Below the pieces are notes generated by a model, which was not told the DNA's origin, did not search any database, and worked only from the letters and a program-made list of their open reading frames with translations. Both the position numbers and the translations under genes were made by a program. Source: an uncultured delta proteobacterium (GTDB lineage: Bacteria; Myxococcota_A; Polyangia; Polyangiales; Polyangiaceae). From it: 64,000 nt of DNA. Location: NCBI GenBank assembly GCA_963839305.1, contig CAWIUL010000011.1, positions 2,633,561-2,697,560 on the forward strand. The letters run 5' to 3'. Positions 5,849-58,355 of this stretch are shown piece after piece (the stretch's first letter is position 1; each line of letters starts with the position of its first letter).

Positions 5849-5983
5849 GGCGTGCCATCATGTGTCATGCGCTTGGGGGCTGACAACCGCGTCGTGCTCG
5901 CACCGCGGGAAAATCGCTAAACAAGGTGGTTGCCAGCTGTTGTGCCGCTGGCACTTGGCGTGCATGCTTGGGGCTGGGCCTCC

Positions 5984-19460: not shown

Positions 19461-19990
19461 GTCTTGACGCCTCCTCGCGCCGGCATCTTCACGGTCTGAT
19501 GAGCGGGATCGGGCGCCTTCGCCGTCGCTTCGCTCGGGGCGGGCTGCGCGACCTTCGCGCGTGACTTCTTGCGCGCGAGGATCGTCCCCACGAATTTGTC
19601 GTGGCCGATCTCTTCGACGGTCTTCACTGCGGCCTTCATCGGCGTCTCGCCGAGGCGCACGACGAGCACCGCGGTGTCCGCTCCCTTCGCGAGCGCGATC
19701 GAAGTCGGGTTCTGCTGGATGGACGCGAGCGCGATGATCACGCAGTCGCCCTTCTTCACGTGCTCGTCGATTTCCTTCTTGTGGTAGTCGACGAGGCGCA
19801 TCGTGATGTCGCGCAGATCGAGCACGACGGTGGGCTCGCCGCGGTATTGCCACGCGACCTCGGCGATCGCGCTCGCGACGTCGAGTGACGCGATTTGGCG
19901 CATCGTGGGTACGACGGCGAGCACGCGCCACGTCTTCTTCTGCAGCGCGAGCCAGAGGCTTTGGAGCTCGAATTCTGCTTCGGGGGTCAC
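19457..19990 (-). CDS. Degenerate BY-kinase-like (ParA/MinD-fold) domain protein lacking the Walker A motif.
   Basis: Fold-like pattern VLAVVPTMRQIASLDVASA...VVLDLRD in place of the PGEGKST P-loop. GTG start overlapping the GT2 stop. Lies between a GT2 and the PCP gene, the position typical for the Wzc kinase half. Confidence 0.55.
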   Translation of the reverse strand: MTPEAEFELQSLWLALQKKTWRVLAVVPTMRQIASLDVASAIAEVAWQYRGEPTVVLDLRDITMRLVDYHKKEIDEHVKKGDCVIIALASIQQNPTSIALAKGADTAVLVVRLGETPMKAAVKTVEEIGHDKFVGTILARKKSRAKVAQPAPSEATAKAPDPAHQTVKMPARGGVKT

Positions 19991-21198
19991 TTCGCGGCCT
20001 TCTCCCTCGTCGTACGAACCCACGTGCTCGGTCGGTCCGACGCGGCCAGTCCGAGCTTCCAGACGACGTACACCGGCGCCCACGCGAGGTCGAGCGCTGC
20101 CCGCGGCCCGAGCCGCGTGAGCTGAACACCACGGAAGACGTACGCGCCGACCATGGCGCCCGCGACGGTCCACGGGATCCACGCGACCGGGCGCGAGCCG
20201 GTCGCGATCGCGAGGGCTGCCGTGATCGCGGACGCGCCGAGGCCGAGTACGATCGAAACACCGAGCTTCGAGAGCGGCGGCGTCAGGAGATCGGCGCCGA
20301 GGTCGAACAGCATCGCGTTGCGCTCGACGATACCGCGCTTCAAGAGGCGCCAGCCGTGCTTGTCCGTGAGCTCGCGGCGGCCTTCTTCCCAGCGTTGCCG
20401 CTGCGAGCGCGCGGCCTTGCCCGTCGAGACCATCTCGCCGAGCACCGCGGCCTCGCCCACGTACGCGACGCGATGGCCCGCTTCGCCGAGGCGAATGCCG
20501 TACTCGACGTCCTCGACGATCGAGAACGCGTCGTGAGGGACCTCTCGGAGGACGCTGCACGCGAAGCCCATCCCGTTTCCGCGCAGGCCGCACGAGACAC
20601 CGAGTCGCTCGCGCGCGTTCGAGCGCACCACGTGGAAGAGCGACATCGCGATGACCATGAGCCGCGTGCGCCAAGAGGCCTCCGGGTTTCGCACGCCGTA
20701 CTCGGCTTGCACGGCGACCTCGCCCGCGGAGAAGCGCGCGGCGAACGCCATGAGCAGGTTCTTCGTGACGCGCGTGTCAGCGTCGACCACGACGACGGCG
20801 TCGGCGTGACCTCGAGCGAGCGCCTCTTCGAACGCGCGCGCGAGCGCGTAGCCTTTGCCGCGTTTCTCCGCGTCGACGCGCTCGATCACCTCGGCGCCAG
20901 CCGCTCGTGCGCGAGACGCGGTGGCGTCGCTGCAGTTGTCCGCGACGACCACGACGCGAAAGCGATCGCGCGGATAGTCCACGGCGAGCAGGCTCGCGAC
21001 GGTCTCGGCGATGTTCGCCTCCTCGTCGTGCGCGGGGACGATCACGTCGAAGTACGGGCGCTTGCCGTTCGCCTTGGGCGCCGCCTTCGGCTTCGACAGC
21101 GCGGTGAGCGCGCCGAGGTAGCCGGACGCGGCGAGCGTGGGGAGTGACGCCGCGGCTACCGCGCCGTCGAGGAGCCGAAAGGCGGTCCGGAGTCTCAC
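19987..21198 (-). CDS. Family 2 glycosyltransferase, membrane-anchored.
   Basis: DVIVPAHDEE, VVVADNCSD, VVVDAD, QRQRWEEG (QxxRW), C-terminal TM helices. GTG at 21198 overlaps the PCP stop. An alternative ATG lies at 21249. Confidence 0.8.
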   Translation of the reverse strand: MRLRTAFRLLDGAVAAASLPTLAASGYLGALTALSKPKAAPKANGKRPYFDVIVPAHDEEANIAETVASLLAVDYPRDRFRVVVVADNCSDATASRARAAGAEVIERVDAEKRGKGYALARAFEEALARGHADAVVVVDADTRVTKNLLMAFAARFSAGEVAVQAEYGVRNPEASWRTRLMVIAMSLFHVVRSNARERLGVSCGLRGNGMGFACSVLREVPHDAFSIVEDVEYGIRLGEAGHRVAYVGEAAVLGEMVSTGKAARSQRQRWEEGRRELTDKHGWRLLKRGIVERNAMLFDLGADLLTPPLSKLGVSIVLGLGASAITAALAIATGSRPVAWIPWTVAGAMVGAYVFRGVQLTRLGPRAALDLAWAPVYVVWKLGLAASDRPSTWVRTTREKAAK

Positions 21199-22676
21199 GT
21201 CTCGAGCTCCCCCAGGATCGGCAACTTGAGCTTCCGCTCGACCTGCCACGGTTCGACGATGACCCCGAGGCGCCGCTCGCGCAGCACGACGCCGCCGAAC
21301 GCGAAGACGAAGATCGCGAACGCGATGCCCAAGAAGAGCGCGATCGGGTTGGGGTTACGCGGGCGCCTCGTGACCTCGGCGGGGTGGACGATGCTGAAGC
21401 GGTATTTGTGCGCCGTCTTCGCGATGTCGAGCTCGATCTGCGCGCCGTCGATGCGGTTCTCGAGATCCGCGTATTTCTGGGCGCATTGCTGCAATTTCAT
21501 CTGCGCGACGGTGACCGCGGGATCCTCCTCCATGATGAGCCGCGAGCTCGGCGAACCCGTGAGCGCGGCGATCGTCGCGGCGGACGAGTGCGTCGTCGAC
21601 GCCGCGGCGATCGCGGTCGCGAGCGGCGGCGCGTTCACGGCCACCTTGTCGATGAGCGCGCGCTCCTCGTTGCGCAGGCGCGCGAGGTCCGGCGGCTCGG
21701 CCTGAGCCTCCACGAGCTTCTGCTTGAGCGCGACGACCGTCGGGTGCTCGGGCCTGTACTGAACGAGCGCGTCCGAGAGCTGCTTGTTCAGCTCGTTGAT
21801 GCGCTGCGTGCGCTGCGACTCGACCTGTTGGATCTCGTTGCGCTTGTCCTGGAGCGCTTGGAGGAGCGCGGGATCGACGGCCGGCGCGTTGGCGCTTGCC
21901 TTCGGCGCGGGCGGCGCCATGAAGCGCGGCTGAGCGACCGCGTTGTTCGCCTTCGCCGCCGGTTTCTTCTTCATCTCCAGCGACTCGAACTCGTCGCGCG
22001 CCTCGTCGAAATGCGACTTCTCCTCTTTCGCGTGCTGCTGCAGAATGTCGATCGCGTCGTTGATGACGCTGATCTCCGCGTCGTAGCGCGCGTCGATGAA
22101 GTTCTTCTCGACCGCGGAAGCGAGGTCATACGCCATCTGCGCGTCGGTCCACTCCGCGGTGATCGTGATCGTCGTGTCGTCGCTCGTGACGGTGAGCCGC
22201 TTCTCGAGCACTCCTTCGATCGCTCGCATCCGGTCTTGCTCATCCGGCCGTCCCGCGAGCTTCTCGGTGACGCGATCCCTCCAACGGAGGAGGGTCGGCC
22301 GCGACCCCGCCCACCGGTCGACGAGGTTCACTTGCTTGATGAGCCCGACGAGGTTGTCGTGCTGGAGGATCGTGTCGCCGACGTTCTTCGTGGGGTTGTC
22401 GGCCTCGCGCGGGACGGTGCGGTTCGGGTTTCCGAGCGCGGGGAGCACCAGGTTGCGCTGCGCGAGGATTTTCACCTCGGTCGAATACGTCCGCGGGTAG
22501 AGGACGAACAGCGCACCGCCCAGACCGAGCGACAGCACGAGGAGGGCGATGAACCTGTACGGGTTCCTCCTCGGAGCGCGCAGCACGTAGCCGACGAAGT
22601 CGGAGATGGCGTGTAGGTCAAGCCCCTCCTCTTCCTCCTCGTCTTCGTGCCGATTGTGATCTTCGCCTTTGGGCAT
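21195..22676 (-). CDS. Polysaccharide co-polymerase (Wzz/Wzc periplasmic domain) protein without a kinase domain.
   Basis: N- and C-terminal TM helices flank a long coiled-coil periplasmic region. Acidic N-terminus. Ends right after the second TM. Confidence 0.8.
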   Translation of the reverse strand: MPKGEDHNRHEDEEEEEGLDLHAISDFVGYVLRAPRRNPYRFIALLVLSLGLGGALFVLYPRTYSTEVKILAQRNLVLPALGNPNRTVPREADNPTKNVGDTILQHDNLVGLIKQVNLVDRWAGSRPTLLRWRDRVTEKLAGRPDEQDRMRAIEGVLEKRLTVTSDDTTITITAEWTDAQMAYDLASAVEKNFIDARYDAEISVINDAIDILQQHAKEEKSHFDEARDEFESLEMKKKPAAKANNAVAQPRFMAPPAPKASANAPAVDPALLQALQDKRNEIQQVESQRTQRINELNKQLSDALVQYRPEHPTVVALKQKLVEAQAEPPDLARLRNEERALIDKVAVNAPPLATAIAAASTTHSSAATIAALTGSPSSRLIMEEDPAVTVAQMKLQQCAQKYADLENRIDGAQIELDIAKTAHKYRFSIVHPAEVTRRPRNPNPIALFLGIAFAIFVFAFGGVVLRERRLGVIVEPWQVERKLKLPILGELET

Positions 22677-22742
22677 ACAGGCTCCAGTATATCAATGGTC
22701 GTGCCATGAGGCACTGCGGAGGCGTGGTATCGTGCCGGCTGA

Positions 22743-23159
22743 ATGTACGCCGCAGTCGGTTTCGACCTCGTCGACGTACGTGAGGTGCAAGACTCTATCG
22801 ATCGCTTCGGTGAGCGATACCTCACGCGCGTCTACACGCCAGCGGAGATTGAGTACGCGATGAGCGCGCCCGATCGCGCGACGGCAGCGCGCAGGCTGGG
22901 GGCGCGCTTCGCTGCCAAGGAAGCCACGATCAAAGCGCTCGGCGCGAGCGAGCGGGGCATTAGTCCTCGCGAGATCGAGGTCGCGAGGAGTGCTGACGGC
23001 GCGATCCGGATCATCTTGCACGGTCCGGCATTTGCTGCAGCTCGGGAAGTGGGTGCAACGGCGTTCGTCGTCAGTGTGTCGCATCAAGGCGATTTGGCGG
23101 GCGCAGTCGTAGTCATGGAGAAAAAGCCGACGAGTCGAATCAGGTGGAAGAAGAAATGA
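22743..23159 (+). CDS. 4'-phosphopantetheinyl transferase (AcpS-type).
   Basis: AVGFDLVDVREV...RF...EA..KA.G. AcpS-size (138 aa). Confidence 0.8.
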   Translation: MYAAVGFDLVDVREVQDSIDRFGERYLTRVYTPAEIEYAMSAPDRATAARRLGARFAAKEATIKALGASERGISPREIEVARSADGAIRIILHGPAFAAAREVGATAFVVSVSHQGDLAGAVVVMEKKPTSRIRWKKK

Positions 23160-23404
23160 ACGATCGCATTCGGACGATTTTGAAGGAACACGGACGCCTC
23201 GCTGTGGAAATATCGACACTCGCCGACGACGCGGACTTATACGAAGCGGGAATGACCTCGCACGCGAGCGTCAACGTGATGCTCGCCCTCGAAGGCGCGT
23301 TCGACGTGGAGTTCCCCGACCGCATGCTTCGGCGCGGCGTCTTCGAGAGCGTCGTGGCGATCGCCACCGCGCTGAACGAGCTCACCCAAGGGAAGGCATC
23401 ATGA
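23156..23404 (+). CDS. Acyl/aminoacyl carrier protein.
   Basis: About 82 aa with a four-helix pattern. Ser in DLYEAGMTSHASVNVMLALE. The ATG at 23156 overlaps the PPTase TGA. Confidence 0.75.
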   Translation: MNDRIRTILKEHGRLAVEISTLADDADLYEAGMTSHASVNVMLALEGAFDVEFPDRMLRRGVFESVVAIATALNELTQGKAS

Positions 23405-24561
23405 GCGAAACAGTCGAGCTGGTCGCGCGGATTGGCCGTGAGGTCGCCGCGCCGAACGCTGATTCAGTCGATCGAGAGGCCCGCTTTCCGACCGAAGCGA
23501 TCGACGCGCTGAAGAAGGCGAAGCTGATGAGCACGCTCGTGCCGCGCGCCCTCGGCGGTCACGGCACCGGGATGATCGAGCTCGCCGCGATGTGCGAGGC
23601 CCTCGGCCAGCACTGCGCGTCGACGGCGATGGTCTTCGCGATGCACCACATCCAAGTGGCGAGCATCCTCCGCCACGCGATGAAGCAGCCGTATTACGAG
23701 CGCTACGTCGCGGAGCTCGTCGAGAAGCAGCCGCTCATCGCGTCGGCGACGAGCGAGGTCGGCATCGGCGGCGAGATGCGGACGAGCCGCTGCGCCGTGG
23801 TCCGCGACGAGGACGCGCGGTTCAAGCTCGACAAGGACTGCTCGACGATCTCGTACGGCGCCCAGGCCGACGACATCTTGTTCCAGGCTCGGCGCGGGCC
23901 GGACTCGCCGCCGAACGATCAGATCTTCGTCCTCGTGCGAAAGCCCGAGTGCACGCTCACGCAGAAGGGCAACTGGGACACGCTCGGCATGCGCGGGACG
24001 TGCAGCCCGCCGTTCATGCTCGAATCGAGCGGCGAGGTCGGTCAGATCTTCGACACGCCGTTCTCCGACGTCGCGAGCGAGACGCAGGTGCCGTTCAGCC
24101 ACGTGCTCTGGTCGAACGTGTGGCTCGGGATCGCCACGGCCGCCGTCGGCCGGGCGCGCGCGTTCGTGAGGCAGCAAGCGCGCGCGAAGCCCGGCACCGT
24201 GCCGCCCACCGCGCTCCGCCTCGCGGAGGCCTCGAGCATGCTCCAGACGATGCGCACCAACGTGCACGACGTCGCGAGCGAGTGCGACCGCTTGATGCAC
24301 GACGACAAAGAGGGCACCGCCGCGCTCTCGTCGATCGGGTTCGCGCTCAAGATGAACAACCTGAAGGTGAGCTCGTCGCAGCTCGTCGTTCAGATCGTGA
24401 ACCATGCGCTCTCGATCTGCGGGATCATGGGCTACAAGAACGACTCGAAGGTGTCCGTCGGACGCCACCTGCGCGACGCGCACTCCGCCGCGCTCATGGT
24501 CGGAAATGACCGCATCTTCGCGACCAACGCGTCGATGCTCCTCGTTCTCAAAGACGATTGA
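23401..24561 (+). CDS. Acyl-CoA / acyl-ACP dehydrogenase family protein (FkbI-like).
   Basis: Full-length ACAD fold. ATGA overlap with the carrier-protein gene. Confidence 0.8.
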   Translation: MSETVELVARIGREVAAPNADSVDREARFPTEAIDALKKAKLMSTLVPRALGGHGTGMIELAAMCEALGQHCASTAMVFAMHHIQVASILRHAMKQPYYERYVAELVEKQPLIASATSEVGIGGEMRTSRCAVVRDEDARFKLDKDCSTISYGAQADDILFQARRGPDSPPNDQIFVLVRKPECTLTQKGNWDTLGMRGTCSPPFMLESSGEVGQIFDTPFSDVASETQVPFSHVLWSNVWLGIATAAVGRARAFVRQQARAKPGTVPPTALRLAEASSMLQTMRTNVHDVASECDRLMHDDKEGTAALSSIGFALKMNNLKVSSSQLVVQIVNHALSICGIMGYKNDSKVSVGRHLRDAHSAALMVGNDRIFATNASMLLVLKDD

Positions 24562-24569
24562 GGCAAACC

Positions 24570-25475
24570 ATGTCGTACTCGCCGCAGGAGCTCTACGAAG
24601 GGCTCGTCTCGAACAGGTTGATCATCCCCGTCGGCGTGCAGGGCATCTTCGGGCGCGGCCCGGTGTTCGAGGAAGTCCTCGCGCGGTTCGACGACTACGT
24701 CTCGCGCGTCGCGAAGGACGACGGCGCGGAGAAGATGATGTTCCCGCCCACGCTCGACCGAAGGGTGTTCGAGAAGGTCGAGTACATGGACTCGTTCCCG
24801 CATTTGTCGGGCGTGATCTTCTCGTTCAAGGGGACCGAGCGTCAGGCGCTCGAGCTCGGCGCGAAGATCCACGCGGGCGAAAACTGGGACGGGCTCATGG
24901 CGTCGACGGAGTGCGTGCTCACGCCGGCCGCTTGTTATCCGGTCTATCCGAGCTTCGCGGGGACGGTGCCCGAGCAAGGTCGGCTCGTCGACATGCAAAA
25001 CTGGGTGTTCCGTCACGAGCCCTCGCCCGAGCCGACGCGCATGCAGGCGTTCCGCGTTCGCGAGTTCGTCCGCGTGGGAACGCCCGACGTGGTCCTCGCG
25101 TGGCGCGACATGTGGCTCGAGCGCGGGCTTCAAATCATGAAGTCGCTCGGGCTGCCCGCGAAGAGCGACGTCGCGAGCGATCCGTTCTTCGGCCGCGGCG
25201 GCAAGATGCTCGCTGCGAACCAGAAGAACGCGCGGCTCAAGTTCGAGGTGCTCGTGCCCGTCATCTCCGAGGAGAACCCGACGGCGCTCTGCTCGTTCAA
25301 CTGGCACCAAGAGCACTTCGGTCAGGTGTTCGACATCAAGACGACGGACGGCGCCGTCGCCAACACCGCGTGCCTCGGCTTCGGCATGGAGCGCGTGTGC
25401 ATGGCGCTCTTCAAGCACCACGGGTTCGATCCCGCGAAGTGGCCAGCCGAGGTGCGCGCGAAGCTCTGGCCATGA
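24570..25475 (+). CDS. Amino acid--[carrier protein] ligase: truncated class-II aaRS (atypical SerRS-like) catalytic core.
   Basis: Class II motif 2 (FRVREFVRVGT) and motif 3 (GFGMERVCMALF). Cys residues (ACYPVYP) resemble the Zn site of methanogen-type SerRS. No tRNA-binding domain. About 300 aa. Adjacent to the carrier protein and the PPTase. RBS GAGG upstream of the ATG at 24570. The track ORF begins with TTG at 24558. Confidence 0.7.
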   Translation: MSYSPQELYEGLVSNRLIIPVGVQGIFGRGPVFEEVLARFDDYVSRVAKDDGAEKMMFPPTLDRRVFEKVEYMDSFPHLSGVIFSFKGTERQALELGAKIHAGENWDGLMASTECVLTPAACYPVYPSFAGTVPEQGRLVDMQNWVFRHEPSPEPTRMQAFRVREFVRVGTPDVVLAWRDMWLERGLQIMKSLGLPAKSDVASDPFFGRGGKMLAANQKNARLKFEVLVPVISEENPTALCSFNWHQEHFGQVFDIKTTDGAVANTACLGFGMERVCMALFKHHGFDPAKWPAEVRAKLWP

Positions 25476-26461
25476 GCGCCATCGTCCACGCCCTGCCGCG
25501 CATCGACGCGTCCACGTACGCGCCCCACGAGCTCCATCGCGGCGAGCGCGCCTGGGGCGAGTCGAACTGTTACATCGACGTGTGGATCGAGGTGCTGAAC
25601 GCGCTCGGGTGCGATCCGCACGCGTGCCTCTCGTTCGTGACGAGCCTCGACTGGGAGGGCGATCAGTTCACGTTCTTCAAGCCGCCGCACGAGGATCTCT
25701 ACGAGCTCTACGGCGTCGACATCCAGGAGCTCACGATCTACAGGCCGCTCGTCGAGAACGCGATCGAGCAGCTGAAACAGGGCAAAATCGTGCTCTCCGA
25801 GATCGACGCGTACTACCTGCCGGACACCGCGGGCACGGACTATCGCGCGCAGCACACGAAGACGACGATCGGGATCCAGGAGATCGATCTCGAGGCGCGC
25901 ACGCTCGGGTACTTCCACAACTCGAGCTACCACGTGCTCGAAGGCGCGGACTTCGTCGGGCTCTTTCGGCTCGACGCGGCGCCTGACCCGACCTTCATGC
26001 CGTTCTTCGCCGAGCTCGTGCGGACGAAGCGCGTCGTGCGCCACGAGCCGCGCGCGCTCGTCTCGCGCTCGGTCGCGCTCTTGAAGAAGCACCTCGCGCG
26101 GAGGCCCGACCAAAACCCGATCCCGCGCTTCGCGGAGACGTTCAAGGCAGACATCGAGCGCCTCAAAAGCGAGGGGCTCGCCGCGTATCACCTCTACGCG
26201 TTCGCCACGATTCGCCAGCTCGGCGCGGCGTTCGAGTTCGCCGCGCTCTACCTCCGCTGGCTCGAGCGAAACGGCGAGGGCGATCTCGAGCCCAGCGCGC
26301 TCGCGTTCGACGCGATCTCGAGCGTGTCCAAATCGCTCGTGTTGAAGGCCGCGCGCGCCGTGGGCGCCAAGAAGGACGTGGACCTTTCGTCGATGCTGCA
26401 CGAGATCGAGTCGCAGTGGACGAGCGGGATGACGCACCTCGCGAAGCGGTACGGCGTGTGA
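25472..26461 (+). CDS. Conserved hypothetical protein (329 aa), co-transcribed with the aa:CP ligase.
   Basis: ATGA overlap with the ligase stop. No motif recognised. Confidence 0.6.
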   Translation: MSAIVHALPRIDASTYAPHELHRGERAWGESNCYIDVWIEVLNALGCDPHACLSFVTSLDWEGDQFTFFKPPHEDLYELYGVDIQELTIYRPLVENAIEQLKQGKIVLSEIDAYYLPDTAGTDYRAQHTKTTIGIQEIDLEARTLGYFHNSSYHVLEGADFVGLFRLDAAPDPTFMPFFAELVRTKRVVRHEPRALVSRSVALLKKHLARRPDQNPIPRFAETFKADIERLKSEGLAAYHLYAFATIRQLGAAFEFAALYLRWLERNGEGDLEPSALAFDAISSVSKSLVLKAARAVGAKKDVDLSSMLHEIESQWTSGMTHLAKRYGV

Positions 26462-26462
26462 G

Positions 26463-28857
26463 ATGAGGCTCGACGAGGGGTGGGAGATGGCGCTCGGAGC
26501 GCCCGTGGCTTGGAGACCGATCCCACGCGAGCGATTCGGCACCGTCGCGCGCGTCCTCGGAACGACCCTCGACGGCGACGTGACCGATTTCGACGCGACC
26601 GAGGTTTGGTATCGCAAGCGGCTCGCGCCCGGCGAGACGGGCGATCTCCTGAGGCTCGGCGGTCTCGCGACGCTCTGCGACGTGCGCGTCGACGGCGAAG
26701 AGGTGCTCCGCACGGACAACATGTTCGTGGAGCACGAGCTCACCGTCGCGCGACCCGCGCGAGATCGAGCTTCACTTTGCGCCGCTCGCGAAGGCGCTCG
26801 CCGAGCGTCGTCCGCGCCCGCGGTGGAGGGCGACGATCGTGGCGCAGCAGCAGCTCCGGTGGTTTCGCACGAGCCTGCTCGGGCGGATCCCGGCGTGGAC
26901 TCCGCCGATCGCGCCGGTGGGACCGTGGCGGCCCATCACGCTGGAAAGGGCGTCGCCCATCGCCGCGCACGACCTCAAGACGCGACTCGAAGGGCGCGAC
27001 GGCGTGGTCGAGGCCACGATCGCGCTGCGAGGCGACGTGAAGACCGTCGAGCTCGCCGTGGGCGAGCATCGCGCGACCCTCGAGGTCGACGGCGTCGCGC
27101 GCGGCACGCTGCGCGTCCCGAACGCGCCGCTCTGGTGGCCGCACACGCACGGTGCGCAGCCCCTCCTTCCGGTGCGCGCGCGGGTCGACGGAGCCGACTT
27201 CGAGCTCGGCGCGACCGGGTTTCGCAAGCTCGACGTCGATCAGCAGGGCGGCGCGTTCACGCTGCACGTCAACGGCGTTCGCGTCTTCGCGCGCGGCGCG
27301 TGCTGGACGCCGCTCGACCCGATCGGCCTCGGCGCCACGAAGGCCGAGCTCCGCGCTGCGCTGACGCAGGTGAAGCGCGCGGGGATGAACATGGTCCGCC
27401 TCTCGGGGACGATGGTCTACGAGTCGCGAGACTTCCACGAGCTGTGCGACGAGCTCGGGATCCTCGTCTGGCAGGACTTCATGTTCGCGAACATGGACTA
27501 TCCGATCGCGGACGAGCGCTTCGCCGCGTCCGTGCGCCGCGAAGCGACGCAGGCGATGTCGCGTCTTCAGCTCTCACCGAGCCTCGTCGTGTGCTGCGGC
27601 GGAAGCGAGGTCGAGCAGCAAGCGGCGATGATGGGGCTGCCCGAGAAGGACTGGTCGAGCCCGCTCTTCGCGGAGGTCTTGCCGGGGATCGTGCGCGAGG
27701 CGCGCCCCGACGTCGCGTACGTGCGCTCGACCCCCGCCTCGCATTTGGGGGGCGGCGTCCTGCCTTTTCACGTCGATCGCGGCGTGTCGCATTATTACGG
27801 CGTCGGCGCGTACCTTCGCGATTTCGACGACGCGCGGCGCGCGCGCGTGCGCTTCACGTCCGAGTGCCTCGCGTTCGCGAACGTGCCGCGCGACGAGACT
27901 ATCGAGGCGCTCATGCGCGACGGTGAGTCGCCTCCGAACCACCCGCGCTGGAAGAGCCGCGTGCCGCGCGACCGCGGCACGCCGTGGGACTTCGACGACG
28001 TGCGCGATCACTACGTGAAGGAGATCTTCGGCGTCGATCCACGCGCGCTCCTCTTCGGCGACGGCGCGCGGTACCTCGAGCTCGGGCGCGTCGCGACGGG
28101 CGAGGCGATGGCCGCGGCCATGAGCGAATGGCGTCGCGCGGGGTCCGAGTGCGCGGGCGCGCTCGTGTGGTTCCTGCGCGATCTGTGGGACGGCGCGGGT
28201 TGGGGCGTCATCGACGCGCGCGGCGCGCCCAAGGCGGCGTACCACCACTTGAAGCGCGTCCTCGCGCCCGTCGCGCTGCTCGCGATCGACGAAGGGCTCA
28301 ACGGGCTCGCGCTCCACGCGGTGAACGACGCGCCGAGCGCGATCGACGCGGAGCTCCGCGTCGCGCTTCATCGTGGCGAGGGGATCGTCGCCGAGGGCAC
28401 GCGCGCCGTCGCGCTCGGAGCGCACGACGCCATCGCCGTCTCCGCGGACGAGGTCATCGGCCGCTTCACGGACGTCACCTACGCGTATCGCTTCGGGCCG
28501 CGCGGTCACGACGCCACGCTCGCGACGCTTCGCGATCGCGCGAGCGGCGCGCTCCTCGGGCGCGCGTTTCATTTCCCGCGCGGCGCTCGCGCAGAGCGCG
28601 CGAGCGATCTCGGCCTCGAGGCACGCGCCGAACGCGTCGACGAGGGCTCGTGGAGGCTCACGGTGCGCACGAAGAAGGTCGCGTACGCGGTCGCCATCGA
28701 CGCGCGCGGATTCGTCGCCGACGACGACTTCTTCCACGTGGCGCCCGGCGACACTGGCGCGTTCTCGACCGTGCTCACGGGGCGAGGCGACACGATCTCG
28801 GGGACGGTTAAGGCGCTCAACGCCACGACGCCGACGAAGATCGTTTGCGCGCGTTGA
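26463..28857 (+). pseudogene. Glycoside hydrolase family 2 (beta-mannosidase-like), reading frame broken near 26750. Pseudogene or sequencing indel.
   Basis: The N-terminal sugar-binding domain is in frame 26463 (…TDNMFVEHELTVA). The rest is in the frame of ORF 26839..28857 (…REIELHFAPL…, GH2 TIM-barrel). The switch falls within about 26745-26760. Confidence 0.65.
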
Positions 28858-28888
28858 CAGCTCGAGTTTCCGTAGTCACGCCATATGA

Positions 28889-29698
28889 ATGACGGCAGTA
28901 CAAGACGCGCTGAATCGTTCGACGTGGTCGCAGCGCTCGTCGCGACGCTGGCTCGACTCGGTGCGCGACTTCACCGACCCTGGCGAGGAGGCGGCGCTCG
29001 CGGTCGTGCGCGAGCGCGCGCGCGGAAAGCCGATCCTCGACCTCGGCGTCGGCACGGGCCGAACGATACCGATGCTCGAGCCGCTCACGCACGATTACCG
29101 CGCGATCGACTATCTGGAGGGGATGGTCGACGCGTGCCGAGCGCGTCACCCGCGCGTCCGCGTCGAGCTCGGTGACGCTCGGGCGCTCGACGGCGTGCCT
29201 GACGCCCACTTCGGCCTCGTGAATTTCAGCTTCAACGGGATCGACGCGGTCGATCACGACGATCGCACGCGCGTGCTCGGCGAAATGCGGCGCGTCGTTC
29301 GCCGCGACGGATACGTCCTGTTCTCGACGTTGAACCTGGACGGCCCCGCGTTCCGCGAGCGGCCTTGGACGCCGCGCGCTGCGACCCAGTGCAGCCTGCC
29401 CCGCGCGGCCGCGCGCACCGCCATCGCGCTCGCGAGCGTGCCCTTCGACGTCGCGCGGTGGATGCGCATTCGTCCTGGCGCGCATCGCGGCGACGGTTGG
29501 GCGATCGCGCCGCTCAGCGCGCACCACTACGGCGTGCTCGCGCACTTCACGACACTGGAGCGCGCGCTCGAGGAGCTCGCGAGCGCGCGACTCGATCGGG
29601 ACGTCGTCGTCCTCGAGAACACGCGAGGGGCTCACGTGAAGCCTGGCGACGACACGAGCGACGCGGACTGGTTCCACTTCGTCGCGCGCCCGGCCTAG
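28889..29698 (+). CDS. Class I SAM-dependent methyltransferase.
   Basis: Motif I ILDLGVGTGR, plus post-I and motif II regions. Confidence 0.8.
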   Translation: MTAVQDALNRSTWSQRSSRRWLDSVRDFTDPGEEAALAVVRERARGKPILDLGVGTGRTIPMLEPLTHDYRAIDYLEGMVDACRARHPRVRVELGDARALDGVPDAHFGLVNFSFNGIDAVDHDDRTRVLGEMRRVVRRDGYVLFSTLNLDGPAFRERPWTPRAATQCSLPRAAARTAIALASVPFDVARWMRIRPGAHRGDGWAIAPLSAHHYGVLAHFTTLERALEELASARLDRDVVVLENTRGAHVKPGDDTSDADWFHFVARPA

Positions 29699-29701
29699 GT
29701 A

Positions 29702-30163
29702 CTAAGGCAGGTCGGTGACGAACGTCGCCGGGTTTCCCGCGACGAGCGTGTTCGGCGCGACGTCCGCCGCGACGACCGAGCCCGCGGAGACCACGCAGCC
29801 GCGACCGAGACGAACGCTGGGCAGGACGATCGCGCCGAGGCCGATCCATACGACGATCGCGTTGCCGATGATCGCAGGCGACATGCGCCGCGCGGACGGG
29901 CCGAGCGCGTGCGTGCCCGTGTGGAGCGTCACGCGAGGACCGATCGACGCGCCGCGGCCGATCGTGATGCGCTCGTCGAGCCCGAACGTGACGTCGGGGC
30001 CGATCGTGACGTCCGGGCCGATGCGGAGGTTCTTGATGGCGCCGCGAGGACCGATCAAATAGACGTCGCCGAGGACCGCGGCGCCGCGGCGAACGTCGCA
30101 ACCCGCGAAGCGGAGTAGCTGCGCGCGGACTCCGGGGAACGTGAAGTCCGGGAGCATGCGCAT
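29702..30163 (-). CDS. Hexapeptide-repeat (LbH) sugar O-acetyltransferase (maltose/galactoside acetyltransferase-like).
   Basis: Tandem [LIV]-G-x-x-x-x hexapeptides: IGPDVTIGPDVTFG...IGRGASIGPRVTL...IGNAIVVWIGLGAIVLPSVRLGRGCVV. Confidence 0.85.
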   Translation of the reverse strand: MRMLPDFTFPGVRAQLLRFAGCDVRRGAAVLGDVYLIGPRGAIKNLRIGPDVTIGPDVTFGLDERITIGRGASIGPRVTLHTGTHALGPSARRMSPAIIGNAIVVWIGLGAIVLPSVRLGRGCVVSAGSVVAADVAPNTLVAGNPATFVTDLP

Positions 30164-30326
30164 CGCGAGCTTCGCACCGAGTCGGGAGCGTCGACGACGA
30201 GCGTCGCCCCGCGCGCTTCGCGCATGACGCGCGCGAGCCTCCCGCGAGGCTGCTCGGACGCGTCCTCGGCGGTCGTGGACGCGGGCGATTCGAAGGTCGC
30301 AACGAGCGGCTTGGCGAGCGGGCTGG

Positions 30327-30974
30327 TCACGGTGGCGATTCTCCTCGAGCGAACGCGGCGAGTGAATCGAAAGTCCGCGGGCGCGCGAACAGGTCGTGCG
30401 GGAAGCTCACGCCGAGCTCCTTCTCGAGCGCGACGAGCACTCGAAGCGCGGCGAGCGAGTCGAAGCCGCGCGCTCTCCGCACGTCGCTCGCGTCGTCGAG
30501 CTCCGCGGCGGCCGCGACGATGCGGCAGACCACGTCGCGCACGCGCTCGCGGGTCGCGTCCTTCGCCGGCGCGCCGTTCGCCTTCTGGGCGTGGGGCATC
30601 TCGCCGGTGCCGGTCACCACCGCCCCATCAGCGATCCACGCGTTGTCGGCGATCGAGAGGTCGCCCGCGATCTCGTCGTCGACGATGCACCCGACGCCGA
30701 TGCGCGCGCCGCGACCGACGACGACGCGACCGCGCGCGCGGATCACGGCGCCGCTCTCGATGAGCGCGTCTTCGCCGATCTCGAGCTACGCGCCCGGGCG
30801 TACGACGATCGTGATCGGCGCGGGCGTCGACACGAGCACCGCGCGCGCCCCCACGACGAGCGCTCCCTCCACTGCGACGCTCGGCATCCCCAGCACCCGA
30901 ACGCCCGAGCCCACGCGAGCGCCGAGCGTGAAGCGCGCGCGCGCGGCGTCCAAGCGCCCGGCCACGGCACGCAC
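30327..30974 (-). pseudogene. Hexapeptide-repeat acyltransferase fused to a C-terminal acyl carrier protein, interrupted by an in-frame TAG at 30786-30788.
   Basis: ORFs 30786..31103 and 30327..30746 share a frame. Hexapeptide repeats continue across the TAG. The C-terminal 80 aa are a canonical ACP (GFDSLAALRVLVALEKELG). Probable GTG start at 30974. Confidence 0.6.
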
Positions 30975-30988
30975 GAGCTTGCGTCGGA

Positions 30989-32524
30989 TCAAGCGAGCCC
31001 CTCGACGGTCACGAGCGAGCGCGCCCCGGGCATTTCGCCGAGGTCCACGCGCCACGCCTCGCCGTCTCGCGCGAGCCGCGCGCGCGCGAAGAAATCGACG
31101 CACGGCTTGTTCTTCTTCGTCGGGATCGGCTCGACCGAGAGAGAGAGCGCGCGCTGAGCGCCTTCGCGCGCGACACCGCCGCCCAGAGGATCGTCTCCTC
31201 GACTCGGCGCCCCATCACGCGGCAGCTCAAGAGGTAATCCTCCAGCGTCGCGCGATCGCCCTCGCGCGAGACGCCGAAGAGGCCCGTCAACCCTGCGTCG
31301 CCGAAGCGGTCGGAGACGTGCGCCGCCCAGACCTCGTGGCCAGGAGCGGCGGCCCACGCGAGGAGCTCGCTCTCGCTCATGCGGCGCGTGCGGAGGTTCA
31401 TCTGGTTCGTCTTGTTGAGGAGCTGCGCGGCGCGCGCGACGTTGCCCTTCGCGACGCGCTCGAAGCGAACGACGAGACCGAGCGTCGCGAGCCAGTCGTC
31501 GATCGACGTCGACACGCTGCGTAGCGCGGTCCGCTGGCGCTCGGTCGCGTACATCGCGTTGCGCTCGAGGTCCTCCTTGCTCACGTGCGGCGTGTCGAAG
31601 CAGCGAAGCGACTCCAGCGCGCGGCCGTAGTGCGTCGGGTCGAGCGCCCACTCCGGCACGTAGACCTCGGGCAACGCCTCGCTGACGCGGCCGCGTTCGA
31701 CGGGGTTGTCGTCGATGAACACGACCGACTGAAGGCCGAGGTTCAGCTCCGTCGCGATCTCGACGATGTTACGCGCCTTGTCGCTCCAGTTGATGCGATA
31801 CGAGGCCAGCATCTCCGGCCGGATGATCATCTCCGGGCGCCCAGACGAACGCGAGATCGACTTTCGAATCGCGCGAGCCGAGCCCGATGAGCGTGGGGAT
31901 CACGTGGTCGAACGGCGCGACCTCGGCCTCGATGGAGAGGCCGTCGAAGTCGATGTCCGCGAGCTTGTGGGCGAGCTCGTCGATCGTGAAGTCGGCGGCG
32001 AGCACTGCGCGGACGCGCGTCATCGTGGGCGCGCCTCGCACGGTTTGTGCAGCGAAAGGGGCGTGTTTGGCCGGCGCGCGTTGCTCGGAGGGGACGGTGG
32101 ATCCGGGTGGCACTACTGCGCCCCGTGGCACGACGCAGCCCGCGACGATTCGCGCGCCCGCGCCGATGCGTACGCCCGCTTCGATCGTGATCGCCGAGGA
32201 GACGCCGTCCGCGCCGCGGTCGCATATCGTCACGTTGGGGCCAATGATCACGTCCTGGTGCACGCGCACCTCAGAGTCCGAGAAGATGGCGACGCCGGGC
32301 TCGATCGTGACGCGCTCACCGATCGTGATCGTTCCCGCGTTGGTGGTCGCGAGGCGAACCGGCGAGGCGCTCGAGTGGATCGTGACCTCGTCTCCGATCT
32401 CGATGCGGCCCTCGTTGCGAACGAGCGGGCGGCCCGAGACGCGAACGTCGCGTCCGACGCTGTCGCAATCGTCCAGGCGCAGCATCGCGGAGAGGCCACG
32501 AAGCATCATGAGCGGTGCGATCAT
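30989..32524 (-). pseudogene. LbH (hexapeptide) domain fused to an FkbH-like (HAD-IIIC) domain, with two apparent frameshifts.
   Basis: LbH repeats run from the ATG at 32524 (ITIGERVTIEPGVAIF...). The FkbH-like N-terminus (IDFDGLSIEAEV...SKVDLAFVWA) is in the frame of ORF 31769..32932. The central part (RINWSDKARNIVEIATELNLGLQSVVFIDDNPVERGRV) is in the frame of ORF 31009..31830. The C-terminus (VEPIPTKKNKPCVDFFARA) is in the frame of ORF 30989..31651. Shifts fall near 31835 and 31140. Confidence 0.55.
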
Positions 32525-32566
32525 CGAGCGTTCGACGTCAGAGCACGGAGCATGCCGTGTCCTGTG

Positions 32567-34356
32567 GTACTCTGCCGGGTCGCCCTGTGAGCACTGCGCA
32601 CGCGTTTTGGTTCGGGCCGAAAGGACGGCGTGCGTTCGGTTGGTTTCATCCACCGGTGGGGAAGGCGCGCGCTCTGGGCGTCGTCTTGTGTCCGCCGCTC
32701 GGTCACGAAATGTTGTGCACGCATCGCGCTTATCGTCACCTCGCCGAAGGTCTGGCCGAGCTCGGATTTCCGGTTCTGCGCTTCGATTACCACGGGACAG
32801 GCGATTCGCCAGGGGGCGATCGTGACGAGGATCGCGTCGGCGCGTGGCTCGGGACGATCGACGACGCGATCGAAACGCTGAGGCAGACGGGGATCGCGCG
32901 CGTGGCGCTCTTCGGCATGCGCGTCGGCGCAACCTTCGCCGCTGCGGCCGCCGCGCGACGCGGCGGGGTCGACGAGCTCGTGATGGTCGCGCCGTGCGTC
33001 TCTGGCGGCACGTTCCTCCGCGAGCTCCGCGCGTTGCACAAGCTCCGCGAGCGCGGCGAGGCGAGGCCGCCCTTCCACGGACAGCGCGAGGGCGACGAGG
33101 AGGCGATCGGCTTCGTATTCCGGCGCGAGACGATCGAGGCGCTCGCGAAGGTGGACTTTCGCACGCTCGCCACGAAGCCCGCGGCGCGCGCGATGATCGT
33201 GCCGCGCGACGACATGCCTGGCGGGGAGACGCGCATCGCGGACCGCCTCCGCACGCTCGGCGTCGACGTCGAGGTCGTTTCGGCGCCGGGCTACGCGACC
33301 GCGGCGAGCGACGATCCGTACGTCGCCGAGGTGCCCACGGAGATCTGGCGCGCCGTGACGGCCTGGCTCGAGCGCGCGAACCCGGAGAGAGACATCACTC
33401 ACGCGAGCCCGGAGGGCGACAAGGTCGAGCCGATCGACTCGCGCGTCGTCGAGTCCGCGATCCGCTTCGGCGAAAACGACCGGTTCTTCGGCGTCCTCAG
33501 CGAGCCCATCGGATCGCGCAGCGAACTCGCGGTCATCGTTCCAAACACGGGCGCGAACTCGCGCGTCGGGACGAACCGCTTCAACGTCGCGCTCGCGCGT
33601 CGCCTCGCTTCGCGCGGGCACGCGGTCCTTCGCATGGATCTCGGGGGAATCGGCGACAGCGCACCGCACGACGGCGCGCGAGAAAACGACCTGTTCGCGG
33701 ATCGGTCGATCGCCGACGTGCGCGCCGCGATCGACGCCACCGCCGCGCGCGGATACCGCCACTTCGTCACGATGGGTCTCTGCGCCGGCGCGTACATGTC
33801 CTTCCACACGGGCCTCACGGATCCGCGCGTCGCGGGGATGGTTCTGATGAACCCGCCCGCGTTCGAGTGGACGCCGGGGCGCAAGGTCGAGCGCATCGTG
33901 ACGCGGCCACACGGCAACGTGCGTTCGATGCGCTACTACCGAAATCGCGCGCTCCGGCTCGACACGTGGCGTCGGCTCGCGCGCGGCGAGGTCCAAGCCG
34001 GCGCGATCGGTCGCGTGCTCGCGGCGCGCGCGAGAGGTCGCGCCGCGACGGCGGTGAAGCGCGCGGCGATCATCCTCGGTCGTCCCGAGTGGGTGATGAG
34101 CGATCTCGCGCAGAAATTCACGGCCCTCGTGCTGCGCCGCACCCGCGTGCTCTTGTTGTTCAACGACGAGGAGGCGATGCTCGACGAGCTCGACAAACAC
34201 CTCGGCGGCCTCATGGTTTGGCTGACGAAGCGCGGCGTCGAGCTCGAGACCATCGACAACACCGATCACATCTTCGCGCCCGTGTGGTCGCAGGAACGCG
34301 CCTCGGACGTCCTCACGGACTTCATCGATCGGGTGGCGAGGGAGAAATCGCGATGA
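32567..34356 (+). CDS. Tandem alpha/beta-hydrolase fold protein (two hydrolase domains).
   Basis: Two repeats of an alpha/beta-hydrolase core, with nucleophile-elbow-like GMRVGAT and GLCAGAY. A GTG start at 32567 with GGAG upstream was chosen over the longer ORF, which overlaps the divergent gene. Confidence 0.6.
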
Positions 34357-34757
34357 TCGACTACAAGACCGGAAACGACCTCGATCTCGATCAAGTGATC
34401 GCGCTCTACCGCTCTTCCACGCTCGGCGAGCGGCGGCCGGTCGACGATCGCGAGCGCATGCGGGAGATGCTCGAGCGCGCGAACGTCGTCGTCAGCGCGT
34501 GGGACGAGACGCGCCTCGTCGGGATCGCGCGCAGCTTGAGCGATTTTGCGTGGTGCACATACCTCTCGGACCTCGCCGTCGACGCCGCGTACCAGCGCCA
34601 CGGCATCGGCAAAGAGCTCGTGCGGCGCACCCAGCAGATCGGCGGACGCGCGACGATCGTGCTCTTCGCGGCGCCCGCCGCCATCGACTACTACCCGCGC
34701 ATAGGCTTCACCGCCGGCAGCGGCTGGATGCTCCGTGAGCACGAACGCGTACGCTGA
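34353..34757 (+). CDS. GNAT family N-acetyltransferase.
   Basis: QRHGIGKELV motif A. ATGA overlap with the upstream hydrolase. 134 aa. Confidence 0.8.
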   Translation: MIDYKTGNDLDLDQVIALYRSSTLGERRPVDDRERMREMLERANVVVSAWDETRLVGIARSLSDFAWCTYLSDLAVDAAYQRHGIGKELVRRTQQIGGRATIVLFAAPAAIDYYPRIGFTAGSGWMLREHERVR

Positions 34758-34761
34758 GCCT

Positions 34762-35628
34762 TCAACGGAGCGCACGATCGAGGAACTCGATCACGACGCG
34801 TTCGTATTCCTCGGGCGCGGCCGCGGCGTATTCGCCGTGTTCGGCTCCGGGCACGATCCAGAATTGCTTCGGGTCCGGAGACGCGTCCACCACGCGCCGC
34901 ATGACGGCGGGGGGCGTGTCGTCGTCCTCGCTCCCGGCGATGAAGAGCTTCGGCCGCGAGCCGAGCTCAGCGGCGTGATCGATCGGCCGCACGCGCGAAA
35001 AGTCGATGCCCGAGCGCTTCATCGCGAGCACCGCGGGATAGCGAGAGAGCGCGCCGCGGCCACCGGCCTTGCGCGTCATCTCGTCGTCGATGTCGGGCCA
35101 GATCGCCTCGAGGATGACCGCCCGCACGCGCGGATCGGTCGCCGCTTCGAAGAAGACCGGCGTCGTGCCGACGGAGAAACCGAGCGTCACGACCTTCTCT
35201 GCGCGCGCCGCCGCGAAGGCGACGGCCGCCTCGACGTCGCGCTGCTCGTCGATCCCCCACGTCGCGCGATCGCCGTCGCTCTCGCCGTGCGCCCGCGAGT
35301 CGTAGAAGAGCGCTCCGTAGCGGTGCCGCACGAGCATCTCCGCGACGGCGAGGAAGTGCATTCGGTTCTGGCCGAGCCCGTGGGCCATCACGACGACGGC
35401 GCCGTTCTTGGGCGCGGCGAAGCTCCCGCGGAGCGTGAGGCCGTCGCTCGTCACAAACGTGACCTCTTCGGAGAATTTCTTCGCGCGCTCTCGGTCTGCC
35501 GCCTCGATGGGGCGGCGCGGGGGATGCACTTGAGCGAGGCCGTACCGGTAGTAGCGAATCTCCTCGATCGCGCTCACGATGGCGAGCACGGCGAGAACCG
35601 CCCCCACGATCTTCCACCGACGCGCCAT
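34762..35628 (-). CDS. Membrane-anchored alpha/beta hydrolase.
   Basis: N-terminal TM helix. GxSxG-like GFSVG. Asp/His candidates near the C-terminus (AEHGEY). Confidence 0.75.
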   Translation of the reverse strand: MARRWKIVGAVLAVLAIVSAIEEIRYYRYGLAQVHPPRRPIEAADRERAKKFSEEVTFVTSDGLTLRGSFAAPKNGAVVVMAHGLGQNRMHFLAVAEMLVRHRYGALFYDSRAHGESDGDRATWGIDEQRDVEAAVAFAAARAEKVVTLGFSVGTTPVFFEAATDPRVRAVILEAIWPDIDDEMTRKAGGRGALSRYPAVLAMKRSGIDFSRVRPIDHAAELGSRPKLFIAGSEDDDTPPAVMRRVVDASPDPKQFWIVPGAEHGEYAAAAPEEYERVVIEFLDRALR

Positions 35629-35645
35629 CACCTCTCCGCTACCAC

Positions 35646-37136
35646 ATGATCGACGAGCACAAGGCACGAAGACGGCACGAGACGCAGCTCGCCATGCGCA
35701 ACATGGCGATCGTGGGCACTTCGCTGGTCGCCACGTGGAGCGTCGCGCTGCTCGTGCGGCTCGTCCTCCCGCGCCGGCTCGGACCGGCGATCTTTGGGCA
35801 ATACAGCTTCGCTGAGGCGCTCGCCATCAACGGCTTCGCGTTCCTCGGGCTCGGCGTCGACATGTACATCCAGAAGGAAATCCCGCGCAGGCCGGAGCAC
35901 GCGTCGGACTTCTTCGGCGGGACGCAACTCATTCGCGTGGCCGGCAGCGTCGTCATACTCGCCGTGCTGGCGCTCACGGCGCGGCGCGCAGGCTACGGCG
36001 CGGAGGTCGTCGGCACCACGCTTGCTTTTGGCGTTGCACAGCTGTGCGTACTGCTCGCCAACACGTGCGCCACGCTGCTCTACGCGGCCCGGCGCGTCGG
36101 CAGGCTCTCGGCGCTGAACATCGCGACGAAGGTCGTCTGGGCGGCCGGCGTGAGCCTCGCGCTCGTGCGCCGCGCGAGCTTGTGGACCTACGCGGCGGTC
36201 GCGGTGCTGAGCGAGGCGATTCGGCTGGTCGTGCTCTATCGCCTCAGTCAGACCGTGGCGGACGTGCGCGTGCGCATCGAGCCGCGCCAGACGTTCACCG
36301 TCCTCAGGCGGAGCGCGCCGTTCTGGGTGAACCAGGTCGCGATCGTCCTCTACTCGAAGATCGACGTGGCGATCATGGGCATGCTCGTGACCGATCGCGA
36401 GCTTGGGTTCTACGGCGCCGCGACGAACATCTCGAGCGTCGCGATGCTGATGTCGCCGTTCGTGGGATGGGTGCTGACGCCGCAGCTCGCGCGCGTGGTG
36501 GACGATCGCGTGGAGTTCGTGTCGCTGCTCCGGCGCTCGTTCGAGTGGACGCTGGCGCTGGCCATCCCGATCGCGATGATCCTCGGGCTCGGCGCGGACG
36601 TGATCGTCCACGGGGTCTTCGGCGCGAAGTTCGACCCCGCGATCGGCGCGATGCGAATGCTGATGCCGATCTTCGTCGTCGTCTACGTCGCGATGCTCGG
36701 CGCGACGGCGATGATCCTGCTCGATCGATCGTGGACGGTGACGATCGTCACGCTGCTCTCGCTCGTCGCGAATGCATTGCTCAACCTGATCGTCGTGCGC
36801 CCGGCTTGGCACGCGCTCGGCGAGGGCGGCGCGGGCGTCGGCGCGGCCGCGATCTCGGTGAGCACGGAGGCGGTGGTCGCGGTGACGTACATCTGGTACC
36901 TGCGCCGCGAGATCCTCGACGCGCGAAACGTCACGTCGGCCTTGAAATCGCTGGCGGCGTGCGCCGTCGTCGTGGCGTTCCACGTGCTCAGCCCCGACCT
37001 GCGCGCTTGGCGCCTGCCGATCGATGTGGTGCTCTACAGCGCGCTCGTCGTCGGGACGCGAGCCGTGCGAGTCTCGGAGCTTGTCGCGCTCGTACGAACC
37101 ACGTTAACTCGGAGAGGAAGTCATGCGAATTCGTGA
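35646..37136 (+). CDS. wzx: Wzx-type oligosaccharide flippase (polysaccharide biosynthesis protein, MOP superfamily).
   Basis: About 14 TM helices in the Polysacc_synt family pattern. The start may be the internal ATG at 35694. Confidence 0.8.
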   Translation: MIDEHKARRRHETQLAMRNMAIVGTSLVATWSVALLVRLVLPRRLGPAIFGQYSFAEALAINGFAFLGLGVDMYIQKEIPRRPEHASDFFGGTQLIRVAGSVVILAVLALTARRAGYGAEVVGTTLAFGVAQLCVLLANTCATLLYAARRVGRLSALNIATKVVWAAGVSLALVRRASLWTYAAVAVLSEAIRLVVLYRLSQTVADVRVRIEPRQTFTVLRRSAPFWVNQVAIVLYSKIDVAIMGMLVTDRELGFYGAATNISSVAMLMSPFVGWVLTPQLARVVDDRVEFVSLLRRSFEWTLALAIPIAMILGLGADVIVHGVFGAKFDPAIGAMRMLMPIFVVVYVAMLGATAMILLDRSWTVTIVTLLSLVANALLNLIVVRPAWHALGEGGAGVGAAAISVSTEAVVAVTYIWYLRREILDARNVTSALKSLAACAVVVAFHVLSPDLRAWRLPIDVVLYSALVVGTRAVRVSELVALVRTTLTRRGSHANS

Positions 37137-37710
37137 GCTGATCCTCGTGTGTGCGCTCGGTGCGGGCGCATGCGGCCCCTCGGGGTCGTACGTCTGGGTG
37201 AAAGACCTTCCGCCAACCGGCGATTTCTCGACGGACTACCTCATCGCCACTGGCGACGTGATCAGTGTGCGTGTGATCAATCAAGATTCGATGAGCACAC
37301 GCGCGCGCGTCCGCAACGACGGCCGCGTGGCGCTCCCGCTCGTCGGTGACGTCGAGGTCCGCGGGAAGAAACCGGCGTCGGTGCGCCTCGAGCTCGAGGC
37401 GCGCCTCAAGGAGTACCTCGTTGCGCCGAGTGTCACCGTGAACGTCGAGGAGGTGGCACCCGTGACGGTGAGCGTTCTCGGCGAGGTCACGCACCCGGGC
37501 GTCGTGCAGATGGACGGCTCGGGCGGCGTCGCGCAGGCGCTCGCGTCCGCGGGCGGCCTCACCGACTACGCGTACCGCGATCGCATCTTCGTCGTACGCT
37601 CCGGTGGCAAGCCTTCGCGCGTGCGCTTCACGTTCGACGAGCTCGCGGGCGGCGATTCGGCTGCGTCGCGCTTCACGCTGCGACGCGGAGACGTCGTCGT
37701 CGTCGAGTGA
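37123..37710 (+). CDS. Short outer-membrane polysaccharide export (OPX/Wza-like) lipoprotein lacking the C-terminal OM-spanning helix.
   Basis: Lipobox LGAGAC. Poly_export (PES) motif PLVGDVEVRGK with SLBB-like regions. Only 195 aa. Confidence 0.8.
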   Translation: MRIRELILVCALGAGACGPSGSYVWVKDLPPTGDFSTDYLIATGDVISVRVINQDSMSTRARVRNDGRVALPLVGDVEVRGKKPASVRLELEARLKEYLVAPSVTVNVEEVAPVTVSVLGEVTHPGVVQMDGSGGVAQALASAGGLTDYAYRDRIFVVRSGGKPSRVRFTFDELAGGDSAASRFTLRRGDVVVVE

Positions 37711-49936: not shown

Positions 49937-50024
49937 GGAGAGGTGACCGAGTGGCCGAAGGTACTCGCTTGCTAAGCGAGCGTAGGTCAAAAGCCTACCG
50001 CGGGTTCGAATCCCGCCCTCTCCG
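49937..50024 (+). tRNA. tRNA-Ser (anticodon GCU).
   Basis: Cloverleaf: acceptor GGAGAGG/CCTCTCC, anticodon stem CTCGC/GCGAG with loop TTGCTAA, long variable arm, T-arm GCGGGTTCGAATCCCGC. Confidence 0.9.
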
Positions 50025-50037
50025 CTAAGCTTCCGCG

Positions 50038-53910: not shown

Positions 53911-54204
53911 GGGCTTCCTTTTGTAGTCTGCGAGTGCTACGAAGTCATCAGCGGGATTGTTCCCCGCTTTTGTGGCCTCATCGACTCGGAAGCGTGAACC
54001 CCGCCAGGCCCGAGAGGGAGCAACGGTAGCGTGGAAGGGTGTGATGGGGCCTTTGCCTTTAAGGGCCGAAGGCGCTAGACCAGCCTTCAGGGAGCTCCCT
54101 CCCCAAAGTTTTTCGGTTCCGTTGATGCCCTCGGGCATCCGGAGCTTTCCTCACCACCTCAAGCTTCCGGTCGTGCCGCTCTGCGGCAGACCTTTTCGAG
54201 ATCC

Positions 54205-58344: not shown

Positions 58345-58355
58345 CGAGCTCCTGA

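Follow-up and report, generated by a model that had tools for sequence, protein, structure and literature searches.

A gene for an LbH-ACP fusion protein is interrupted by an in-frame TAG in the 64,000-nucleotide stretch of DNA analysed here (the window, to which all positions refer). We lean, without great confidence, towards the view that this stop is a recent genuine nonsense mutation, which arose in an operon already inactivated by a deletion. The TAG is an ordinary feature, a knockout lesion if it is real and an error of the assembly if it is not, rather than a special decoding signal.

Direct reading of positions 30786-30788 gives CTA on the plus strand, that is, TAG on the minus strand; on the sequence and the homologue alignment it is codon 69 of the gene. 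The gene itself (30327-30992, minus strand), delimited by its open reading frame, a homologue search and an alignment, starts with TTG at 30992 and comprises 221 codons followed by TGA (30327-30329). Across the stop the minus-strand frame reads ...PITIVVRPGA-stop-LEIGEDALIESGAVIRARGRVVVGRG...; the longer translation of 31103-30327 gives ...STPAPITIVVRPGA-stop-LEIGEDALIESGAVIRARGRVVVGRG... and runs on to an ACP-like C-terminus and the TGA. The joined 221-residue sequence, with the stop replaced by X, was used as the search query and matched 36 homologues, the top match showing 83% identity over 100% coverage (E 5e-104). The best homologues are full-length, unbroken proteins of 216-257 residues in which both halves of the query are covered. 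Judged by these matches, the two sides of the TAG are one gene, far beyond chance.

Thirty of the 36 homologues, aligned in full, were taken into the alignment (A1). The column of the stop holds a sense residue in 30/30 of them: S, which is the consensus, or H, T, R or K; the four nearest homologues have the codons CAC (L001, the nearest relative), AGC (L009 and L011) and TCC (L010). The ACP (PP-binding) domain lies downstream of the stop, at residues 149-214 (30351-30548, minus strand), and matches Pfam PF00550 with 33.4 bits against a cutoff of 20.8, over profile positions 1-66 of 67. Its phosphopantetheine-attachment serine, Ser179 of the DSL motif (30456-30458), is invariant among the 30 aligned homologues. 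The Hexapep profile PF00132 reaches only 16.8 bits on the window protein alone, which is below its cutoff of 27, so the LbH assignment rests on homologues that have PF00132 and with which the protein aligns end to end. According to this alignment, the TAG at residue 69 falls within the LbH repeats and truncates a conserved domain. Outside the stop the gene is undamaged and all invariant residues are kept. The first-pass annotation had described an in-frame amber codon here, with hexapeptide repeats uninterrupted on both sides of it and an intact ACP downstream; this description is borne out, since the frame is as first written, full-length homologues span the site, and the ACP domain scores above its cutoff with Ser179 in place.

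An in-frame UAG beyond which coding continues in the same frame is also what programmed read-through or pyrrolysine UAG decoding presents, and by such a route (programmed read-through, amber suppression or pyrrolysine recoding) a full-length LbH-ACP protein would be made. The base 3' of this TAG is C, and in E. coli a stop codon followed by C is considered to terminate weakly. The likeness does not go further. A stop in the TAG column occurs in none of the 30 aligned homologues; an in-frame stop is thus not conserved at all. TAG is a regular terminator in the window, closing 9 of 56 gene ends (TGA closes 43 and TAA 4), so the code is standard. Neither a suppressor tRNA (tRNA-CUA) nor pyl genes were found in the 64-kb window, where tRNA-Ser(GCT) is the sole tRNA, and there is accordingly no decoding tRNA in it. 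The 161 nucleotides around the stop fold with -86.5 kcal/mol, no better than their shuffles (mean -92.0 kcal/mol, z = +1.31), which speaks against a stimulatory RNA structure; the Rfam scan together with local RNA folding returned nothing relevant near the TAG. The neighbouring genes, moreover, are broken as well. Considering that the stop is unconserved, that TAG is a normal terminator, and that suppressor tRNA in the window and RNA structure are both absent, read-through is left without support, and we hold it to be extremely improbable. The initial ranking, with a nonsense mutation or a base-call error first and read-through as less likely, is therefore retained.

The interrupted gene is the second of three LbH genes on the minus strand, in the order LbH-FkbH, LbH-ACP, LbH acyltransferase. 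The stop codon of one gene overlaps the start codon of the next: TTGA at 30989-30992 joins the TGA of LbH-FkbH to the TTG start of LbH-ACP, and GTGA at 30327-30330 joins the TGA of LbH-ACP to the GTG start of the acyltransferase. Such overlaps imply translational coupling of the three genes. The nearest relative has intact versions of all three, encoding 722, 221 and at least 192 residues; in the window each of them is damaged. That both flanking genes are broken too goes beyond the first-pass annotation, and it means, together with the frameshifts in the window (at least seven), that the TAG is no isolated oddity.

The operon belongs to a glycan-type locus (17823-37700), in which GT2 glycosyltransferases occur with FkbH, ACP and further genes, in particular an acyl-CoA-dehydrogenase-like gene (23401-24561), a DUF1839 gene (25470-26458) and a SAM methyltransferase gene (28889-29698). 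A GH2-like glycosidase and alpha/beta hydrolases are also encoded; among the latter is an intact 613-residue protein with two tandem alpha/beta-hydrolase domains (32515-34356, plus strand), divergent from the broken operon. The locus is syntenic in metagenome-assembled genomes of Polyangiaceae and Myxococcales.

The glyceryl unit that FkbH-type enzymes load onto a dedicated ACP comes from 1,3-bisphosphoglycerate (PMC7489565). The window resembles the known FkbH/FkbJ-type systems of glyceryl-ACP loading (methoxymalonyl-ACP, tetronate; PMC7489565) in that FkbH adjoins an ACP and that the acyl-CoA-dehydrogenase-like and SAM methyltransferase genes lie in the same locus. It differs from them in the LbH domains fused to the N-termini of both FkbH and the ACP, and in that the locus contains many glycosyltransferases but no PKS; a 3-hydroxyacyl-CoA dehydrogenase (FkbK) was not seen in the locus. 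Considering the many glycosyltransferases and the missing PKS, glycan decoration is a likelier purpose than the supply of a polyketide extender. We presume from these gene assignments that the intact operon likely serves to make a small ACP-bound acyl group and to transfer it to a glycan.

The upstream LbH-FkbH gene (30989-32563, minus strand, with an approximate 5' end), recognised by TIGR01686 and by tblastn with the relatives' ORFs, is broken and runs through three frames. The NCBIfam FkbH profile TIGR01686 scores 202 bits on it, but profile positions 71-305 alone are present, and tblastn matches to the relatives' ORFs fall successively in frames -1, -2 and -1. The ORFs of four relatives more distant than the nearest one (L002, L004, L005 and L006), with which the deletion was mapped, match 32.8-31.84 kb and 31.836-31.165 kb in two different frames. 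At the junction (31836-31850, minus strand) all four jump by 211-216 residues while the window coordinates are contiguous; about 214 codons (about 640 bp) are missing, and the rest of the gene is put out of frame. In the relatives the missing segment holds the HAD motifs VVDLDDTLWGG (the nucleophile, DxDxT) and VVSKNEE. By the TIGR01686 profile and by comparison with the relatives, the FkbH domain of the window's gene is incomplete and lacks the DxDxT nucleophile motif. In 4/4 relatives CC[CG]GA (Pro-Asp/Glu codons) is found at both edges of the missing segment, a microhomology on which the junction lies and which fits a genuine slippage deletion. Further downstream, the relatives' ORFs and the frame analysis place a frameshift at a (TC)5 repeat (31137-31147, minus strand), which would be accounted for by one additional TC unit. 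The corresponding position on the nearest relative's contig is occupied by the intact 722-residue gene.

The downstream LbH acyltransferase gene (29702-30330, minus strand), which is WcaF-like by its profile matches and was further delimited by DNA alignment and the relatives' ORFs, is broken by a frameshift: one nucleotide is deleted at a run of C (30184-30186, minus strand), as seen in the DNA alignment with L001 (A2, column 963). The same gene has a 12-nt in-frame deletion at 29848-29856 (minus strand), found by comparison with L001 and L003, which costs it four residues of a conserved I-x-I-G-D/E-G-x-W-I-G rung of the LbH domain. The gap is placed as IGNAI[HIEE]GVW against L001 and as IVV[GDGA]WIG against L003.

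These observations can be arranged as follows for the genuine nonsense mutation that we prefer. The FkbH-type enzyme, encoded upstream, would normally load the carrier protein. With the loss of about 214 codons, including the catalytic aspartate motif, LbH-FkbH would have been disabled and the operon would have died first. A carrier with nothing to carry would follow from the loss of the FkbH catalytic core, so that selection on LbH-ACP would be relaxed; a nonsense mutation arising after this loss would be neutral. Translation would then end at codon 69, and no full-length LbH-ACP protein would be made. The stop, the intact homologues and the lesions of the two neighbouring genes are shown by the sequence; we infer that the stop is present in the DNA rather than in the consensus alone and that the deletion preceded it. 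Support comes from the full-length homologues with sense codons at the site, from the deletions of about 640 bp and of 12 nt in the same operon, neither of which is typical of base-calling error, from the concentration of lesions in this operon, and from the position of the window's one nonsense codon within it; by our estimate, substitution errors spread uniformly would hit this operon about 5% of the time.

One of the points against a real mutation is that LbH-ACP itself bears no sign of relaxed selection. Its dN/dS against L001 is 0.20, the lowest among all pairs, and the relative-rate comparison gives 8 residue changes derived in the window against 15 derived in P0001; neither dN/dS nor the relative-rate test gives a signal of relaxation, and both have low power for a recent event. 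If the mutation is real, the undamaged state of the rest of the gene means that the event is recent. The absence of decay fits an error and a very recent real event alike.

The relatives do not agree on the codon before the change: CAC, in the nearest of them, is two steps away from TAG, and AGC or TCC is found in the outgroups. One base change leads to TAG from TCG, CAG, AAG, GAG, TAC, TGG or TTG. A double indel, with T gained and C lost, could possibly convert AGC CTC into a reading with TAG, but it is no simpler than one substitution.

A bacterial nonsense pseudogene in a decaying operon is the known counterpart of our preferred reading. The window shares with it the full-length intact orthologues, the stop inside a conserved domain, and several independent deletions and frameshifts in the same transcription unit. 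It departs from it in two respects: the gene shows no measurable relaxation of selection, so the event would have to be very recent, and some of the lesions could be due to noise in the assembly.

The latter point leads to the state of the window as a whole. Reading frames were surveyed with a codon-usage Viterbi frame plot, and the candidates were then checked against homologues or Pfam profiles; in DNA of 70% GC the Viterbi caller puts some stretches (e.g., 19.4-20.0 kb) in antisense shadow frames, and only frameshifts backed by homologues or by split Pfam profiles were counted. Five lie outside the operon. The GH2-like glycosidase gene (26463-28857) is shifted at 26745-26765 (plus strand), where an 817-residue ORF of L004 matches with residues 12-111 in frame +3 and then with residues 120-813 in frame +1, and where the Pfam Glyco_hydro_2_N2 profile is broken off at position 102 of 167. 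An MFS_3 transporter gene has one extra T at 44761-44762 (minus strand), with the MFS_3 profile split into 7-166 and 183-393 in two frames. An EmrB-like MFS gene has two shifts of one extra T each, 66 nt apart (46102-46104 and 46036-46038, minus strand); it uses three frames, and its MFS_1 match falls into two parts, profile positions 2-187 and 214-346. An esterase gene has an extra C in a run of C at 57494-57497 (minus strand), according to the frame analysis and Pfam.

With the two in the operon, the count for the 64 kb reaches at least seven frameshifts, all at homopolymers of 2-4 nt or at short dinucleotide repeats (C3-4 or T2-3 runs, (TC)n or (GC)n repeats). The rate is about one frameshift per 9 kb, or roughly one frame-breaking lesion per 6-9 kb; about 7 of about 58 genes (about 12%) are broken, by about 10 gene-breaking defects. 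Eleven other genes syntenic with the relatives give single unbroken matches. The lesions are unevenly spread: the operon has five in approximately 2.9 kb, and the other five, all of them frameshifts, are distributed over about 61 kb. The TAG at 30786-30788 is the sole in-frame nonsense codon found in the window.

Some candidate lesions of the survey were rejected. Same-frame stop junctions at about 9407, at 13026, at 16549 and at about 39267 are normal gene boundaries rather than nonsense lesions; those at 13026 and 16549 were read directly, and the other two were judged from the frame plot and the relatives' matches. A run of short segments at 3.5-5.9 kb consists of small genes and normal boundaries.

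Under-polished long-read assemblies of the nanopore type yield fragmenting indels of such density and type (PMC9262707). The five frameshifts outside the operon suggest indel noise across the contig, and the size of the source contig (3.65 Mb) and of the contigs of the relatives L002 and L006, which are metagenome bins (2.7 and 0.4 Mb), suggests long-read assembly. Downstream of the stop, a 139-residue C-terminal ORF can be read from GTG 30746 (30327-30746, minus strand). It matches a public protein of 139 residues, P0005, which is 99% identical to the C-terminal fragment and lies on a 3.65-Mb contig in NCBI/ENA; the TAG is therefore present in the deposited assembly. The fragments P0005 and P0037 are listed as separate proteins in the public collection, a further likeness to long-read assemblies, whose consensus errors fragment gene calls (PMC9262707).

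It is accordingly a serious possibility, although one to which we give less credence than to a real mutation, that the TAG itself arose from base-calling or polishing in a noisy assembly of long reads and that the gene is intact in the true genome, with a sense codon at this place. At least seven frameshifts at short repeats make the consensus demonstrably unreliable, and they sit at the short mono- and dinucleotide runs expected of a nanopore-type consensus (PMC9262707). The gene is otherwise perfectly conserved, with a low dN/dS and every invariant residue kept, and one base change from any of several sense codons suffices. Errors may also cluster in regions of low coverage or of strain variation, and glycan loci are often such regions. 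There are also points on the other side. The other error-like lesions in the window are all single indels, with 0 substitutions among them, and the TAG would have come about by a base substitution or, less simply, by a +T/-C pair relative to AGC CTC. Stops result from no more than a few percent of random substitutions, so that, if substitution errors are assumed to be about as frequent as indel errors, we estimate that well under one such stop is expected in the whole window. Finally, the TAG is found in the one operon that also has the 640-bp and 12-nt deletions, which base-calling does not explain.

The same 139-residue ORF raises the question of whether the stop is real and tolerated. It could be proposed that the gene is split, with reinitiation at GTG 30746 producing an LbH remnant with the ACP (139 residues in all), which would still work as a stand-alone carrier. 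The ACP domain is undamaged and keeps its serine, a protein of exactly this length is in the public collection as P0005, and a purine-rich GAGAG is located about 7 nt 5' of the GTG. Yet none of the 30 fully aligned homologues starts near this GTG, the remnant would leave a truncated beta-helix exposed, and the destruction of the FkbH partner leaves the carrier with no loading enzyme in the operon; we find the proposal very unlikely. We think just as little of the broader variant, in which a functional carrier would be supplied either by reinitiation at GTG 30746 or by low-level read-through in the weak UAG-C context. If it were true, the tolerated stop would be a natural split of the LbH-ACP fusion, whose ACP would then serve a different pathway of the glycan locus.

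Several features elsewhere in the window are recorded here for completeness. A bacterial small SRP RNA (53968-54060, plus strand; 45.2 bits) and the tRNA-Ser(GCT) (49937-50025, plus strand) are the sole Rfam matches. Two tandem small ORFs (5930-6289 and 6286-6582, plus strand) are probably paralogues: each encodes a product with a lipoprotein-like N-terminus and many Asp, Ala and Gly residues, and the motif CSLNPQPLPP occurs in both. An ORF at 57766-58575 (minus strand) ends in a long acidic tail (...DDEDEDDDDEDEEEKEDE), and a low-complexity, trinucleotide-like stretch at about 57770-57830 gives a poly-Ser run on the strand opposite to it.

The main use of the observation is that of a quality flag. 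Gene calls are fragmented in the window, and probably throughout the contig, and apparent pseudogenes, gene splits and recoding sites in it should be treated with caution. The biological weight is small: at most, the TAG would reflect the recent loss of a small acyl-carrier-dependent glycan-decoration operon in one Polyangia-like lineage.
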